From: Octopus vulgaris
Lineage: Eukaryota
Assembly: GCA_951406725.2 (NCBI GenBank)
Contig: OX597835.1
Span: 40,610,001 to 40,674,000, forward strand
Direction: 5' to 3'
DNA length: 64,000 nucleotides
Numbering within the stretch: the stretch's first letter is position 1; each line of letters begins with the position of its first letter. Below the pieces are notes generated by a model that made no database searches, was not told where the DNA came from, and saw nothing but the letters and a program-made list of their open reading frames with translations. The position numbers were made by a program, and so were the translations under genes. Shown here one piece after another: positions 5,584 through 51,775 of this stretch.

Positions 5584-5819
5584 TTAAGGGCCACGTGAAC
5601 TGCGTTGTTGGGTCAGAGTGAAACTTATTTTATTGTCAGACAAGAGTTATGTACCTTCCTCTGCGATGCACACCACAAACTTATGGCTGTGGTAAGATTT
5701 GATCTTGTAACCATGTAGTTAGTATAGAGGGACCCCTTAATCTTAAGCCATGATGCCAGCCTCATTTATTTTTGTCTACTAGTAAAACGGCAGCGAAACA
5801 TGGGCTCTCAATACTACCA

Positions 5820-6035
5820 TCGTGGTTGCCCTCATTGTAGCCTCACTGAAAATAGAACAAATTATGCTCAGCATCACATTGCAGGATAAGAAACCCAAAA
5901 CCTGGATGCAACAGTATTTGAGGGTTAATGACATCATAAGACCCATCAAGGAGATCAAATACAGGTGGGCTGAGCACATCGGGCGACCGAAGGACAAGAG
6001 ATGGACAATCAGGGCGATGGAATGGATACCAAGAT
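5820..6035 (+). mobile_element. RTE-clade LINE ORF C-terminal relic
   Basis: IEQIMLSITLQDK...KYRWAEHIGRPKDKRWTIRAMEWIPR resembles RTE KW.WAGH..R..D.RWT...W.PR. Confidence 0.7.
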
Positions 6036-6564
6036 TGTTCTATTATAGCTTAAATATAGCCATTTTCCATTGATATTTTGTATTAGTATTTTTCATTGAT
6101 AAAATATATTCGTAGTCTTCATTGTTAAAAGAATTTTCCATTTGTTTATTATTAGTTTAGTTAATGACATGATTTTTGAAAGCTAAGTAAACCTTTTTAT
6201 TAAAGTTATTTTAATAATTTGTTATTTTGTATTATATTGGATACTATATATAACTAAGGATTGATAATTTGATTGTATAAGTATTTAGTTGTTGAAGATA
6301 TGTATTTCATTATTAGATTATAACTATACGGTTTTTGTAAGTTACTAATTGGCCAACGAGATATATTGATCGTTAAATAGTTATACAGTTTTTTAAAGAT
6401 AGGTTATACGTTTATAATTTGCTTTTTCATCTTTAATTTCTTAATATAATTTGTAAATAATAATGGAATAATTAATTTATTTAGTTTTCATTATACATAT
6501 ATATATTTATTGATAGAGAAAATTTTAGATCTTAATTATTATATTTATTGATAATAATTTGATT

Positions 6565-10795: not shown

Positions 10796-12219
10796 TATAT
10801 ATATATATACACACATTTAACGCCAGTTTTCCAAGTTGGCATCATACACACACAGACATAAACACACAATAACTTTCCTTCAGCTTCTGTTCAGAAAATT
10901 CCATAACAAGGTTCACATGGCCCAGGGCTATAGTACAAGACACTCAAGGTGCCACACCAATGGACCAATCCAATACCATGTGGTTATGAAGTGAACTTCT
11001 CAATTACACAGCCTTGCCTGCATCTAAACACACACACACCTATATTTTAGTATTTAAATGTTTGAATATAGATTTTTTAATGCATAACAAAAGAGATATG
11101 GCAAACTAGAAGTGTTGTCCAGTCAATTCTATTTTCCGTCACAGTTCCAAGAGAGATCCATCCCAATCTTGACCGCTTTCTCTCACAGATCTACATGATC
11201 AAGGTTTAACGCAAATAACAACACTCAAAAGAGCTATACTTAGTAGAGTGTGAGTGGAGTTTGGAAAAATGGTACCACTTTCTGTGTCAACATAATTAAA
11301 AATAAGTCCCTTATTCCTATGGTTCAACTGAAGTATGAGGAAATAGAAAAATGTAAAGTAATTGTTTGGGCCCAGTTCAGCCTTGATCGACGGTTCTCAC
11401 CATCCCATCTTTTTCTAAGCATTATGTACATTAAATTACAATATTTAATGTAGGATATGATCTGAAGGAGATCTGGCTATTACTTACAGCGTGTCAAACA
11501 TGAGTGGGTAACTTTTTAATGACCAAAAGCAAATTAAAACAAGTTTACAAATCCCAAGACACCAGAGATACCACAGAGTAGAAGGGTTTAAATCGAATGG
11601 AGCTTCTTACCTTGAATCTTGATAATGTTGATCGTTTTACTTCACAAAACTGAGATATATTAGATGGGACTATCAATTCAATTCTTTGTCAGTTTGCAAG
11701 ATTGACATTGTTATCTACAGGTCTTGCATGCAACTGGTTCTTGAGCAAATTCCATGTCAATAAAAATGTCCATTAGTATCAGTCAGCAGGAGAAATTTTC
11801 AATGTAGAATTCCTCCAGAAGTGGAAAATATTTTAATATCAGCAGAAGAATTTATAAAATTTCAAATTTGGATACCAAAATTTTATTCATACTAATAATA
11901 TTTTATTAATACTCCGGTTGCAAAGAACCTGGAACTAAATCTAATGTCGCATCAAAAGGAATTTTAATGGTGTTTGAAAATGAACTGAAAAGATTAAAAT
12001 ACTCTGCAGCAGACTCCACCATTGGTTCTATCTTTCAGTGTTGGTAAACTGTGCCAGATATTCTAAGGCTCAATGCCTTTCCTGTCATCAAACCATACCT
12101 ATTTCCAAGCAAGGTATTATTTTCCTATGGTCAACCATATTTTTCACAGAAGACTGGAAAAGTACTCTGCTGTATGTATTCCAACCAAGGATGCCTCTGT
12201 CGGTATCACTGCCACCAAC

Positions 12220-12512
12220 AAATGCAAATATATGGGAAACTACCACCTGTGTCATCTCTTGTGAAAGGTAGGGGAGTCCAGTTTGCTGGACATTGTTGTA
12301 GAGCTGAAAAAGAAGTAATTTCTACTCTTCTCCTCTGGAAGCCATCTACTCGCAATACCAGAGGGTGCACACTCTCCTACCCTGATGTAATCTCCAGGGA
12401 TACAGGCATCCAGCAACAGGACCTCCGTAATGCTATGATGGACCGTGAAGTCTGGCGTAACATAGTAAATTCCATTGTCTCGACCACGGTCAAACAATGA
12501 TGAATGATGATG
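12220..12512 (+). mobile_element. RTE-clade LINE 3' end
   Basis: IYGKLPPVS...VQFAGHCCRAEKEVISTLLLWKP...YPDVISRDTGIQQQDLRNAMMDREVWRNIV followed by an (ATG)n tail. Confidence 0.8.
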
Positions 12513-31087: not shown

Positions 31088-31479
31088 CTACCACCAGTTG
31101 CGTAATATCGAAGAAATGACAGTGTACTGGATATACGCAGAGACAATATAAAACGTGTGATATAAAAGGTCACCGAGCAAGTCAGGAGAAATCTGCCGAG
31201 CCCCAATTCTTGGAAAGTCCCGCTTCTGCTGGTCCGTCATGCTTAAGAGGACCCCATGCTTGTAGTAGTTGCCCAACATCTTCTCCTTTTCAATGTACAG
31301 TTCATTCATCCAGTCTGTGAGTCCTTTGTTGTCGACAGGGATCTTGTTGGCAGGGTATATCCGATAATGCATAAGGATATGACAGGGGGGCCAATAGCCA
31401 ATACCAATACCATGGATATCAAGAGGCCGACCTTTAGGATATGCGATAGTGACATCCACAACATACTTGAATTTGGGAT
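31088..31479 (-). CDS. LPGAT1: LPGAT1-like last coding exon, acyltransferase C-terminal domain
   Basis: ttccag acceptor; (D)PKFKYVVDVTIAYPKGRPLDI...HYRIYP...LTDWMNELYIEKEKMLGNYYKHG...LRNWW then TAG. Confidence 0.93.
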
Positions 31480-31640
31480 CTGGAAATAAAAATAAAAATA
31501 AAAATCACAGGAAATCATTGTTAAGTACTGGGGGTTCATGTAATTGACTAATTCCCACCTTTCAAATTTAGGGGCTTCTGCCTAAATTAGCCTAAATTAG
31601 AAAATTTCATTTTTATTAATACTTTGAAAACATTGCCTTC

Positions 31641-41346: not shown

Positions 41347-41573
41347 TTAAAGTATGATATAGGGACAAAAACAGGTACCTTGCTGTAGAGGAGATACATG
41401 GCTACCTCAGTTGGAAAAAGGTCATGAATGGTGAAGAGGTGTGAGGGTGTACCCTCAAGTTAGAGGGGGAAAAAAATCTAAAAAATTTCAACAAAAATTC
41501 AAAAAGGTTTCTAGTGAAATTTTTTACAGAAACTCTATAAAACATTTTCAACTAAAAAAAAAATTGAACAAAC

Positions 41574-41788
41574 CTGAGTGATAAAAAAATCTCCTCTGAG
41601 ATTCGAAACAAGTCCAAAGTGAGTATATTTAAAGGTACTGTCTATAATCCACATAACCCGCTTGGACAAGTTGGCCTTGCTGTGCATCAGGTCCATCAAC
41701 GCTGGTACGTCGGCAGTGGACTGGTGATTGGCAATGAGGAGCACGTTCTCATCCAGGATGTAATTGATGTCATCACCGGTCTCGATAA
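41574..41788 (-). CDS. LPGAT1: LPGAT1-like acyltransferase exon with catalytic motif I
   Basis: cctcag acceptor, gtttgt donor, 215 nt entered in phase 1: (x)IETGDDINYILDENVLLIANHQSTADVPALMDL...KYTHFGLVSNLRGDFFITQ; HxxxxD motif. Confidence 0.92.
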
Positions 41789-42656
41789 CTGAGGTGGATA
41801 ATAGAAAAGGCAGAACATGGATTTAAGATACATGTATATCAAGGGCAATAAAATGAATTCAAAAACAAGTAGTAGTAGTAATACTGCTTTCTAAATTTTA
41901 GCATAAAACCAGCAATTTTCAGGAGAGGAGGAAGTCGACTACATTGACCCCAGTATTTAACTGGTATTATCAATCCTGAAAGGATGAAAGGCAGAGTAGA
42001 CCTTGGTGAGACTTGAATTCAGCACATAAAGAGGTGGAACTGTAAAGGTCCACAGACATAAACCCTCTCCTTCGCTAAATAAATCAGAGTAAAACCACAA
42101 AGTCATCAAGGGAGTTTCTGTGGGGTTCGCTTCTGACCTTGCAATGGCACAAGAGGCTACAAAATGAGACTTGTTCGACATTCATAGACTAAAAGCATCC
42201 CATCCACGACCACCTTGGCTTTCATTCAGACAAACTATTCCTGACATACCATCATTCAATGTATCTCTTAGAAAACAAATTGTAGGGTGTGATTTAAAAG
42301 AGATTTAGCTGCTATTTCAAGCAGGTTGATCAACCACATAGAGGTTCCATCATATCATTTGTCATTAGGTGGCAACTATATCTGTCACCATGTGGTGCAT
42401 AGGATAGAAAGAGTACATTTTAAGCGATCCCATTGTCTGTTAGAGGATGGTACAGGTTTGTTCCCCGTGCTAGCAATATATATTGTATATAAAGGGTGCA
42501 ATGTCATACCGATAACCAGCTGGCAGATGGTCTGCCTGGGGTTCAACTAGTAATAACATGGAACAGTCATTCTGACATGGCGATTGACTTTACTTGCTAG
42601 TATAGTAACTTCCCTGATCCCTTCTTGAGATTTTACAAGTAACTATTTTGCTTATA

Positions 42657-49512: not shown

Positions 49513-49818
49513 ATTGCAGCGTGGAAGGTGTTTGTAAGCCATTTAAGAAACACACAAAAACCGTTCGATTCACTTCAACATTTAAGTTTAATTTGTCAAA
49601 ATATTTTCGGCGCTTTAAGACCGCGACCTGTTCACTGACAAAAATCCGGTCTTAAAGCAACGAAAATATTTTGACAAATTAAACTTAAATGTTGAAGTGA
49701 ATCGAACGACTTTTGTGTGTTTCTTAAATGGCTTACAAACACCTTCCACGCTGCAATTGTTTTCATTTCAGCACACGATATCAGATCAAATCACTTGCTA
49801 TGCAAGTACATCTCCGTA
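49513..49818. mobile_element. Palindromic HHR-like element, family P1 (copy 1)
   Basis: Inverted arms spanning 49513-49757 plus a one-sided extension; homologous to 50891-51235. Confidence 0.7.
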
Positions 49819-49980
49819 GTTATATTATTGATGCCTTCAAAATCAAAGATTCACTCTGTTGCTACTCTGAGTTGTCGCACACCAATGCATCTCAATGAAA
49901 TACAGTTAAAAAAATAAATAAAGCTCAGAGCAGGGATGAAGTAAATCACCATGGATGAATATATATATATACACACACTT

Positions 49981-50345
49981 TTATATTTCGAGATGGTCAT
50001 TTTTTTCTTGCCAAATAAACACACCCATTATATATTTGTTCTTCACTTGTTTATTATTGTTGTTATTTTGTGTCCATTGTCTGGAAACCTTTCATCACAC
50101 ACCTGTGACCTCTTCAGCAACCTGGAAACATGTAGGATGGAAAGTCACTGAAGAGGTCACAGGTGTGTGGTGAAAAGTTTCCAGACAATGGACATAAAAA
50201 TAAGAACAATAATAAACAAGTGAAGAACAAATATATAGTGGGTGTGTTTATTTGGCAAGAAAAAAAATGACCATCACGAAATATAACAATATTTATTTCA
50301 ACACATGATTTCACATCAGGAATCCTGCAAAATAAATTCATAAAT
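49981..50345. mobile_element. Palindromic HHR-like element P2
   Basis: Arms 49981-50117 and 50148-50286; CTGAAGA-hairpin-GAAA on each arm. Confidence 0.65.
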
Positions 50346-50553
50346 GAATGTATGAGTGTGTGTGTGTGTGTGTGTGTGTTCTTTTCATGTTAAATTTCAA
50401 TAAAGACAATTTTACATTCATCTGTTGGGTTACTCCACACTTTTGTAGAATATAAATTTATTATTGTTAAACACGAATGTTGTTGAGAGTGACTTCAAAG
50501 TCCACTGTCAACAACATACTTGTTTAAGAATACTATATATACATACATTTATA

Positions 50554-50873
50554 TATCTGTAAATGTAATATGTGACAATTATTCGGTAGCCATGATAAAA
50601 CTCCGAGTTTCGGATGCCAGGGTAGAAATCCGTGCCGCCATCTCTTCAGTTATCCGGCAATTGGAAAAAATGCTATGATTTTTCATAGCATTTTTTTCCA
50701 ATGGCTGGATAACCAAAGAGATGGCGGTGTGGATTTCGACCCCGGCATCCAAAACTCGGAGTTTTATCATGGCTACCGAATAATTGTCACATATTACATT
50801 TACAGATAAATTCCTCTATTTACATAATATCGAGGTCTCTTTCTTTCTTTTGTCGTCTTACCATTTTTATCAA
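50554..50873. mobile_element. Palindromic HHR-like element P3
   Basis: Inverted repeat 50554-50808 centred near 50680. Confidence 0.7.
50594..50654 (-). ncRNA. Type I hammerhead ribozyme-like motif
   Basis: GAUAA CUGAAGA GAUG...CAUC C GAAAC UCGGA GUU UUAUC; helices I, II and III can all form. Confidence 0.6.
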
Positions 50874-50890
50874 TATATATATATATATAT

Positions 50891-51235
50891 AACAATTGCA
50901 GCGTGGAAGGTGTTTATAAGCCATTTAAGAAACACACAAAAGCTGTTAGATTCACTTCAACATTTAAATTTAATTTGTCAAAATATTTTCATCGCTTTCA
51001 GACCACAACCTGTTCACTGACAAAACTTCGTGCTGCATCTCAGTTTTGTCAGTGAACAGGTCGCGGTCTCAAAGCGCCGAAAATATTTTGACAAATTAAA
51101 TTTGAATATTGAGGTGGATCTAACGGTTCTTGTGTGTTACTTAAATGGCTTATAAACACCTTCCACGCTGCAATTGTTTTCGTTTCAGCACACGATCTCA
51201 GATCAAATCACTTGCTATGCAAGTACATCTCCGTA
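50891..51235. mobile_element. Palindromic HHR-like element, family P1 (copy 2)
   Basis: Inverted arms spanning 50891-51178 plus extension, flanked by (TA)n. Confidence 0.7.
51045..51095 (+). ncRNA. Minimal type I hammerhead-like motif with G3-C8 core
   Basis: UUUGUCA GUGAACA GGUCGC-loop-GCGCC GAAA AUAUUU UGACAAA. Confidence 0.55.
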
Positions 51236-51775
51236 ATATATATATATATATATATATGTGTGTGATTAGAATTTTTAGAAATTTTGAGAGGTATGAAAGA
51301 ATTGATTTTTTATGATGGATCTCGAATTAAATAAAGCTGTTCCGTCAGTCCAAAGAGGTTTTTGACCCAATATCTACTTGCTTTTATTTTGTAGCTCTAT
51401 CTACTTTGAATTCCACCAGTTAAAACGAATTCTTTCATATACATGTAGATATAAAACTGAACAAGCATTCGGTGTTTAGCTGAGAGCATTCCAAGTAAGA
51501 AAAGGTTTAAAAAAAAAACAAAAAAAAAAACCCAACAAAAATCATACATGTATTGTGATCCATTTAAATAAAGTTTAAATTTTTTTAAATAAGAGTGTGT
51601 GATAAAATACACACACACAAACATATATATATATAAAAAAAAAAATAAATAAACTGAAAGGAAAAATACCATTGTTGATATATATATAGAATAATTGAGA
51701 TATTATGTGGAAATCATAAGTGAATTAAATCTCTAGCATTTCCTTGTCCAGCATGGCAAATAAATAAATAAAGCC

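Follow-up and report, generated by a model that had tools for sequence, protein, structure and literature searches.

A putative hammerhead with a G3-C8 core pair in a Penelope-like element family from Octopus vulgaris

A hammerhead-like motif with the core GUGAACA, in which G3 and C8 replace the usual C3 and G8, was identified in a 64,000-nucleotide stretch of Octopus vulgaris DNA (contig OX597835.1 of assembly GCA_951406725.2, positions 40,610,001 to 40,674,000; hereafter the window), and the swap is fixed among close members of the repeat family that carries it. The pair between positions 3 and 8 is a tertiary contact of the active hammerhead. As judged from its sequence context, the motif is the putative hammerhead at the pseudo-LTR (pLTR)/ORF junction of an abundant Penelope-like element (PLE) family, likely of octopuses, and its homology to the known PLE hammerheads is close to certain. 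The reading favored here, with a probability of roughly 0.6, is that a PLE master element carries a cleavage-competent hammerhead in which G3-C8 has become fixed, and that the copies in the window are inactive foldbacks.

Motif copies and their surroundings

Three full copies (A, B and C) were recognized by reading the window sequence and with a descriptor, and their positions are those given in the preliminary description, which had been made from the letters alone (Table 1). The 7-bp helix I, the GAAA stretch and the palindrome AAUAUU, all named in that description, were found in every full copy together with the triplet UUU. G3 and C8 occur in all three and are complementary in the Watson-Crick sense. 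The remaining nine core nucleotides (U4, G5, A6, A9, G12, A13, A14, A15.1 and U16.1) are canonical, and these, including the A15.1-U16.1 pair, are present along with H17 in 3/3 full copies. The palindromic helix III is laid out as in the Drosophila rows of Fig. S3 in the available portion of PMC4209133. The published consensus of PLE hammerheads is CUGANGAH...GAAA (PMC4209133, available text); the octopus motif departs from it at positions 3 and 8, and because G3/C8 replace C3/G8 it was filed as a variant and not as a consensus member. The expectation that searches based on CUGANGA would miss it is thus borne out by that consensus.

Table 1. Motif copies and associated features in the window (position 1 is the first nucleotide of the window).
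Feature	Position	Strand	Remark
Copy A, whole motif	51045..51095	+	Evidence: sequence, descriptor, contig tally, folding
Copy A, helix I	51045-51051/51089-51095	+	
Copy A, core G3-U4-G5-A6-A7-C8-A9	51052-51058	+	
Copy A, unpaired G	51059	+	
Copy A, helix II, family register	51060-51064/51074-51078	+	Minority C at 51077 here
Copy A, loop II	51065-51073	+	
Copy A, G12-A13-A14	51079-51081	+	
Copy A, palindromic helix III (AAUAUU)	51082-51087	+	
Copy A, U17	51088	+	Predicted cut between 51088 and 51089
Copy B, CpG-decayed helix II	50974..51024	-	In inverted arm 50891-51043
Copy C	49592..49642	-	In inverted arm 49513-49646
Copy D, without core	49647..49818	+	5'-truncated inside loop II; has ORF start and 3' tail
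First 31 codons of PLE ORF	51145..51237	+	Insertion ends at about +92 from ATG
Foldback insertion 2, arms B and A	50891..51236	.	(TA)n flanks on both sides
Foldback insertion 1, arms C and D	49513..49818	.	
One-sided tail, ~58 nt	51179..51236	+	Direct arm only
Different repeat: canonical CUGAAGA hammerhead-like core, long helix II, own helix III	50594..50655	-	In foldback 50536-50826
Third foldback repeat: CUGAAGA-G-helix II-GAAA on both arms	49981..50286	.	Read by eye; descriptors missed it

The strict minimal-hammerhead descriptor left positions 3 and 8 free and required G10.1 as well as a helix II that closes at GAAA. It matched one of the three copies in the window (copy B), and a looser descriptor matched all of them; copies A and C escape the strict form because both carry a minority C that shifts helix II. 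In simulated sequence (order-2 Markov, trained on this region) the strict descriptor gave 7 matches in 12 Mb, two of them with a Watson-Crick 3-8 pair and one with a helix I of at least 7 and a helix II of at least 5 pairs. An Rfam search of the window gave no match at the gathering score and, at E <= 10, chance hairpin-type matches without any hammerhead family; the neighboring canonical CUGAAGA motif was likewise invisible to the Rfam models. A 19-nt exact pattern occurred at eight loci of JGI metagenome contigs, and these were rejected as chance, the homology extending over no more than 19-20 nt.

Helix II is the one element for which the preliminary description did not hold for the family: its GGUCGC/GCGCC pairing uses the C at 51077, a base of about 1-2% of the family, and 98.2-99.4% read A. 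By run, A at 51077 accounts for 98.2, 98.3, 99.4 and 98.8% of the depth in the four runs described below. With this majority base, helix II consists of 5 bp (GUCGC/GCGAC), closed by G10.1-C11.1 and preceded by one unpaired G after A9. The minority base, which moves helix II by one pair with a G-C closing pair retained, is common to copies A and C from separate insertions. In copy D, the other arm of the insertion with C, the counterpart of 51077 is the majority base. Local gene conversion and a small subfamily are candidate readings of the shared base.

Both insertions are head-to-head foldbacks. The arms of insertion 2 are 91% complementary over 137 nt (50891-51027 with 51042-51178) and those of insertion 1 are 96% complementary over 111 nt (49513-49623 with 49647-49757). 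The direct arms of both stop near +92 of the ORF and the inverted arms at +30 to +34, so that an inverted copy with a tail of ~58-62 nt is present in 2/2 insertions; the 3' loose ends of the family contigs fall at 51236/51237. The inverted arm of copy B contributes 18 nt more of upstream element sequence. If transcribed through, the window copies are predicted to form hairpins of -182 to -208 kcal/mol in which the motif is buried. Since they would be buried in such long hairpins and are 5'-truncated, the window copies are very likely inactive fossils.

The insertions lie in a cluster of hammerhead-bearing remnants, as canonical CUGAAGA cores are found in two other foldbacks of this 1.7-kb region. 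In the foldback at 50536-50826 the minus-arm core starts from 50649, helix III could form in a monomer and the plus-arm core is decayed; in that at 49981-50286 weak pairing is seen in both helix I and helix III. Another palindrome, a shorter one, was seen at 50450-50544. Four foldbacks of three families thus fall within 1.7 kb, a density that suggests an insertion hot spot. Elsewhere on the minus strand, two acyltransferase exons with an NHQSTAD motif were noted (41535-41822 and 31088-31504), which presumably resemble those of LPGAT1. The foldback cluster, being upstream of these exons on that strand, may be intronic, and its long hairpins in pre-mRNA would be candidate substrates of A-to-I editing. 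The short open frames 5786-6073 and 12048-12500 resemble C-terminal remnants of LINE-type reverse transcriptases.

The element family and its conservation

The ATG lies 56 nt after the predicted cut, and the 31 codons that begin with it extend to where the insertion ends. When the encoded peptide was searched against 1.84 billion representatives, it had one match (E 3.9e-5), to the N-terminus of a protein of 167 aa that UniRef names an uncharacterised Octopus bimaculoides protein. Longer relatives of this protein are P0002, an O. sinensis model, and P0003, an O. vulgaris model. The window peptide corresponds to residues 1-31 of P0002 with 30/31 identical residues, and the ORF start of copy D (49728-49820) matches P0002 at 27/31. 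A search with P0003 gave 29 proteins of 680-1222 aa, in which the Y/F-VDD reverse transcriptase (RT) motif (29/29), the CX2-5CxxC linker behind it (25/29) and the YxGET/QT endonuclease motif (21/29) were found; Pfam RVT_1 or GIY-YIG matched weakly, below the cut-off, in nine of them. Residues 1-225 of P0002 match seven of the 29 in a local phmmer search, the best being the 1045-aa P0004 (E 4e-27). The ORF start downstream of the motif is therefore a PLE N-terminus, in agreement with the earlier proposal that the motif is a variant of the minimal type I hammerheads that occur in Penelope-like elements.

A single ORF with RT plus a GIY-YIG domain at the C-terminus may, indirectly, be assigned to the hammerhead-bearing element via this protein homology; within the window no RT or endonuclease remnant of the hammerhead-bearing family was found, and a full-length element with this motif was not encountered. 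The CX2-5CxxC linker would fit Neptune or Nematis and argue against Penelope/Poseidon and Hydra. The frame through the hammerhead had no protein relative among the longer proteins, a weak negative, and the nine short arm peptides had no Pfam match above the cut-off. ESM Atlas matches of P0001 (0.75) and of P0003 (0.97, to eukaryotic DUF8422 clusters) serve as leads only. The P0002 model fuses the PLE N-terminus with a methyltransferase segment (Pfam PrmA); this is probably a mis-joined annotation, with exaptation as the alternative.

Parts of the motif-bearing stretch were present in 20 of the 24 listed runs (12 studies, five organism labels). Four runs with four organism labels were aligned on 51026-51240 at 80% likeness, which gave 16,305, 13,363, 6,566 and 9,265 contigs, respectively. 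Thousands of aligned contigs per run point to an abundant repeat; the summed contig depth was not taken as copy number. Reversion to C3 or G8 was not seen at 2% or above in any of the four runs, and at this level there were no G>C changes across the four runs and a single C>G change, at 51070 in loop II. A change at G3 is less easily detected, since homology to the reference copy begins 8 nt away. The G3-C8 swap is fixed among close family members. That it is a family trait had been argued from its recurrence on the minus strand; three copies in foldback arms would be no proof by themselves, and the statement holds by virtue of the thousands of contigs.

Among the 40 of 51 variants that were listed, the remaining changes in the core and helices are all at CpG sites and none is compensatory in helix I or II; the family is very uniform, and the four near-identical window copies offer no covariation. 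None of the 35 sites in the core and helices showed non-CpG polymorphism, against 18 of the 139 sites in the loop and downstream (p = 0.014), the latter divided into 3/8 sites of loop II and 15/131 downstream sites. This test is fragile, with p = 0.07 if one of the 11 other variants is structural and p = 0.06 once the sites before 51058, at the 5' edge of the alignment, are dropped. The differences at the level of subfamilies fall in loop II and downstream.

A drop in depth before 51042 was considered as the 5' end of the family and rejected, since the truncation at that point belongs to the reference copy, and loose ends of contigs carry on into upstream sequence of the element. Multi-copy joints from 51100 to 51044 with CTT between them reached a depth of 431 in run X1 and 3227 in run X3, and joints from 51165 to 51044 with ATATAT a depth of 1588 in X3 and 95 in X12; the single-copy contig depth is ~40-50. 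As CTT is a subfamily's own continuation, the joints are probably head-to-tail arrays, and hammerhead-bearing units of ~60-80 and 130 nt are probably arranged in this retrozyme-like manner.

Predicted folding, proposed function and alternative readings

With the family-majority base, the fold of lowest predicted energy is the hammerhead secondary structure (z = -2.98 relative to 500 shuffled sequences), and the predicted pair probabilities are 0.71-1.0 for helix I and 0.99-1.0 for helix II. The natural window copies fold less well (z from -0.93 to -1.78), and the probability of helix II is ~0.3 in the decayed copy B. An inactive trap, in which positions 3 and 17 pair, is predicted at 1.3 kcal/mol for G3/U17, 3.5 for G3/C17 and 3.6 for C3/G17, and is absent with A17; even with U17, G3 is paired to position 17 in 67% of the predicted ensemble. 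Such a 3-17 trap has been described, and a G3-C8 variant was stated to be more active with G17 than with C17 as 'data not shown' in the available text of PMC3884650. Helix III between strands is predicted to contribute only -0.2 kcal/mol, and a competing inactive 10-bp duplex over the same palindrome -3.8 kcal/mol.

Based on these predictions, the full-length transcript would fold helices I and II, and G3 would pair with C8 in the active state. Cutting of the master element's RNA after U17 would then be slow and would likely take place in a dimer or be assisted by the protein of the element. The AAUAUU helix III appears too weak for a monomer and the naked dimer would be poor; a monomer is expected to be inactive and a naked dimer poor because helix III is weak and the 10-bp duplex competes with it. 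PLE hammerheads were reported to cut weakly as dimers (PMC4209133, available text). The swap may have been retained since a Watson-Crick 3-8 pair would position the 2'-OH of nucleotide 8 irrespective of the bases. U17 in place of C17 would let G3 be tolerated, as a G3-C17 pair would extend helix I into the inactive 3-17 trap. A17 would be better still, so U17 is to be seen as tolerance and not as an optimum. The UUU triplet had been called suboptimal; U17 is in any case ordinary in PLEs, occurring in 24 of 56 published examples. By our own arithmetic, two random changes among the 11 core positions would hit exactly positions 3 and 8 and be complementary with a chance of about 1/55 x 1/3 = 0.006. 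A wider version of the proposal, namely a natural G3-C8 hammerhead working in a high-copy animal retroelement of several octopus species, with position 17 co-adapted (G3 excluding C17) and head-to-tail arrays supplying the dimer partner in a retrozyme-like way, is put forward tentatively, at well below even odds.

The alternative that survives best, though unlikely, is a vestigial hammerhead, which is dispensable, no longer cuts and owes both changes to fixation in a single successful master element, through drift or hitch-hiking. It would be consistent with the available text of PMC11167929, in which PLE insertion of Anolis in vitro was not impaired by hammerhead mutants, and with the Naiad PLEs, which thrive without hammerheads according to the portion of the literature available. 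The predicted G3-U17 trap with the very weak helix III, the lack of within-family covariation among the 40 of 51 variants listed and the borderline constraint test point the same way. The state of the motif speaks against a decayed ribozyme: both helices, G10.1-C11.1 and the other nine nucleotides of the core are preserved, exactly the paired positions 3 and 8 have changed, in a complementary manner, and subfamily differences fall in loop II and downstream.

Somewhat less likely again is a fold that is kept for a non-catalytic job, such as protein binding, RNA shape near an internal RT start or translation control at the ATG. The motif lies at the pLTR/ORF junction, and it is at this junction that the Anolis protein binds and initiates reverse transcription (PMC11167929, available text), helices I and II are stable with the catalytic arrangement predicted to be disfavored, and functions besides cleavage were left open in the accessible part of PMC4209133. 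A binding or translation role, however, has no obvious need for the 3-8 tertiary pair of the cleavage-active state, and the minimal Anolis insertion RNA could begin at position +20 of the ORF, which is within the hammerhead (PMC11167929, available text). A chance look-alike inside an ordinary repeat is very improbable and largely refuted, for the silence of Rfam hammerhead families even at E <= 10 extends to the canonical CUGAAGA neighbor, the descriptor rate is at most 7 per 12 Mb, and the position of the motif, directly ahead of the start of a PLE ORF, is the one expected of a PLE hammerhead.

If the cleavage-competent reading is right, a G3-C8 pair fixed in a multiplying retroelement would be natural evidence that the pair, and not the bases, is under selection, which bears on the question whether PLE hammerheads matter in vivo. 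It predicts that G3 and C17 should not be found together. If a natural G3-C8 hammerhead does work, this would further mean that surveys of PLE hammerheads have missed whole families, and it would provide a natural test of a double transversion crossing an inactive intermediate. CUGANGA descriptors, which were used to declare some PLEs hammerhead-free, can overlook entire families. The mechanism of hammerhead catalysis and that of PLE transposition are unaltered by the finding.

Comparison with known hammerheads and Penelope-like elements

Neither a natural G3-C8 core nor a hammerhead from octopus was found to be reported in the searchable literature, which misses most subscription papers, e.g., Lunse et al.; the study of PLE hammerhead variants by Lunse, Weinberg and Breaker (2016/17) may hold G3-C8 examples, and the alignments of Perreault et al. 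may bear on the point. Already published are the natural covariation to U3-A8 among PLE hammerheads and the partial rescue of activity by an engineered C3G/G8C change, both in other hammerheads and in one from a PLE. What the octopus family adds is a core of textbook length without insertion, fixed in an abundant animal family (four organism labels), and its link to a PLE ORF.

Among the 56 PLE hammerheads in Fig. S3 of PMC4209133, within the portion of that paper available, a hand count gave 53 with C3-G8, 3 with U3-A8 and none with G3-C8; position 17 was C in 25, U in 24, A in 6 and G in 1 of these rows. The octopus motif shares with the minimal PLE hammerheads of that source the type I topology, the extra nucleotide that follows position 9 and precedes 10.1, and G10.1-C11.1, and with its PLE hammerheads in general the pLTR position, the short palindromic helix III and the close inverted pairs of motifs. 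The palindromic helix III with a 2-nt loop resembles that of Drosophila Penelope, the 5' flank is U-rich as in PLEs, and the oyster Crassostrea PLE hammerhead has the same UUU triplet (PMC4209133, available text). Copies A and C differ from the PLE register in that their helix II is shifted. The extra nucleotide is G in the octopus family and in one of the 56 published examples by hand count (PMC4209133, Fig. S3 as available). The descriptors given in the available text of PMC4209133 fixed CUGANGA or U3-A8 and could not find the GUGAACA family.

U3-A8 occurs in the Cercyon PLE hammerheads of Schistosoma, with ~1,300 matches (PMC4209133, available text), and further natural U3-A8 hammerheads were described by Perreault et al. 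(2011) in the accessible part of PMC3088659. The octopus family is like these variants in being natural and in having a family-wide compensatory 3-8 change. U3-A8, however, requires two transitions with a possible U3-G8 wobble as the intermediate, whereas G3-C8 takes two transversions, passes through a mismatch and exchanges the places of purine and pyrimidine.

As far as the available text of PMC11167929 goes, an engineered C3G/G8C change partly restores cleavage in the hammerhead of Anolis Poseidon (PAc), cleavage of the Anolis PLE hammerhead needs the element's protein, and the hammerhead is unnecessary for insertion in vitro, with no RNA ends at the cut. According to the same text, Anolis insertions have their ends within the ORF; two such end points exist, both of them sites where reverse transcription starts, and they delimit the tail. 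The octopus family is like PAc in having the hammerhead at the pLTR/ORF junction and two in-ORF end points that define the tail. In PAc, however, the swap was engineered, stem II contains the start of the ORF and a tail of 30-40 bp is given (PMC11167929, available text), whereas in octopus the swap is natural, the ATG lies 56 nt past the predicted cut and the tail is ~58-62 nt. The protein relatives of the octopus family also have the zinc-finger linker of Neptune/Nematis rather than the Poseidon type.

Compared with the Neptune/Nematis PLEs in the available text of Craig et al. (10.1101/2021.04.23.441226), the DKG motif of the octopus relatives reads DKSG, and only the first 31 codons of the ORF are in the window. 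The likeness is found in the RT, the CX2-5CxxC linker and the GIY-YIG domain of these relatives. It extends to the insertions themselves, which share with the PLEs of that source an inverted 5'-truncated copy, a one-sided tail and, in insertion 2, a microsatellite target.
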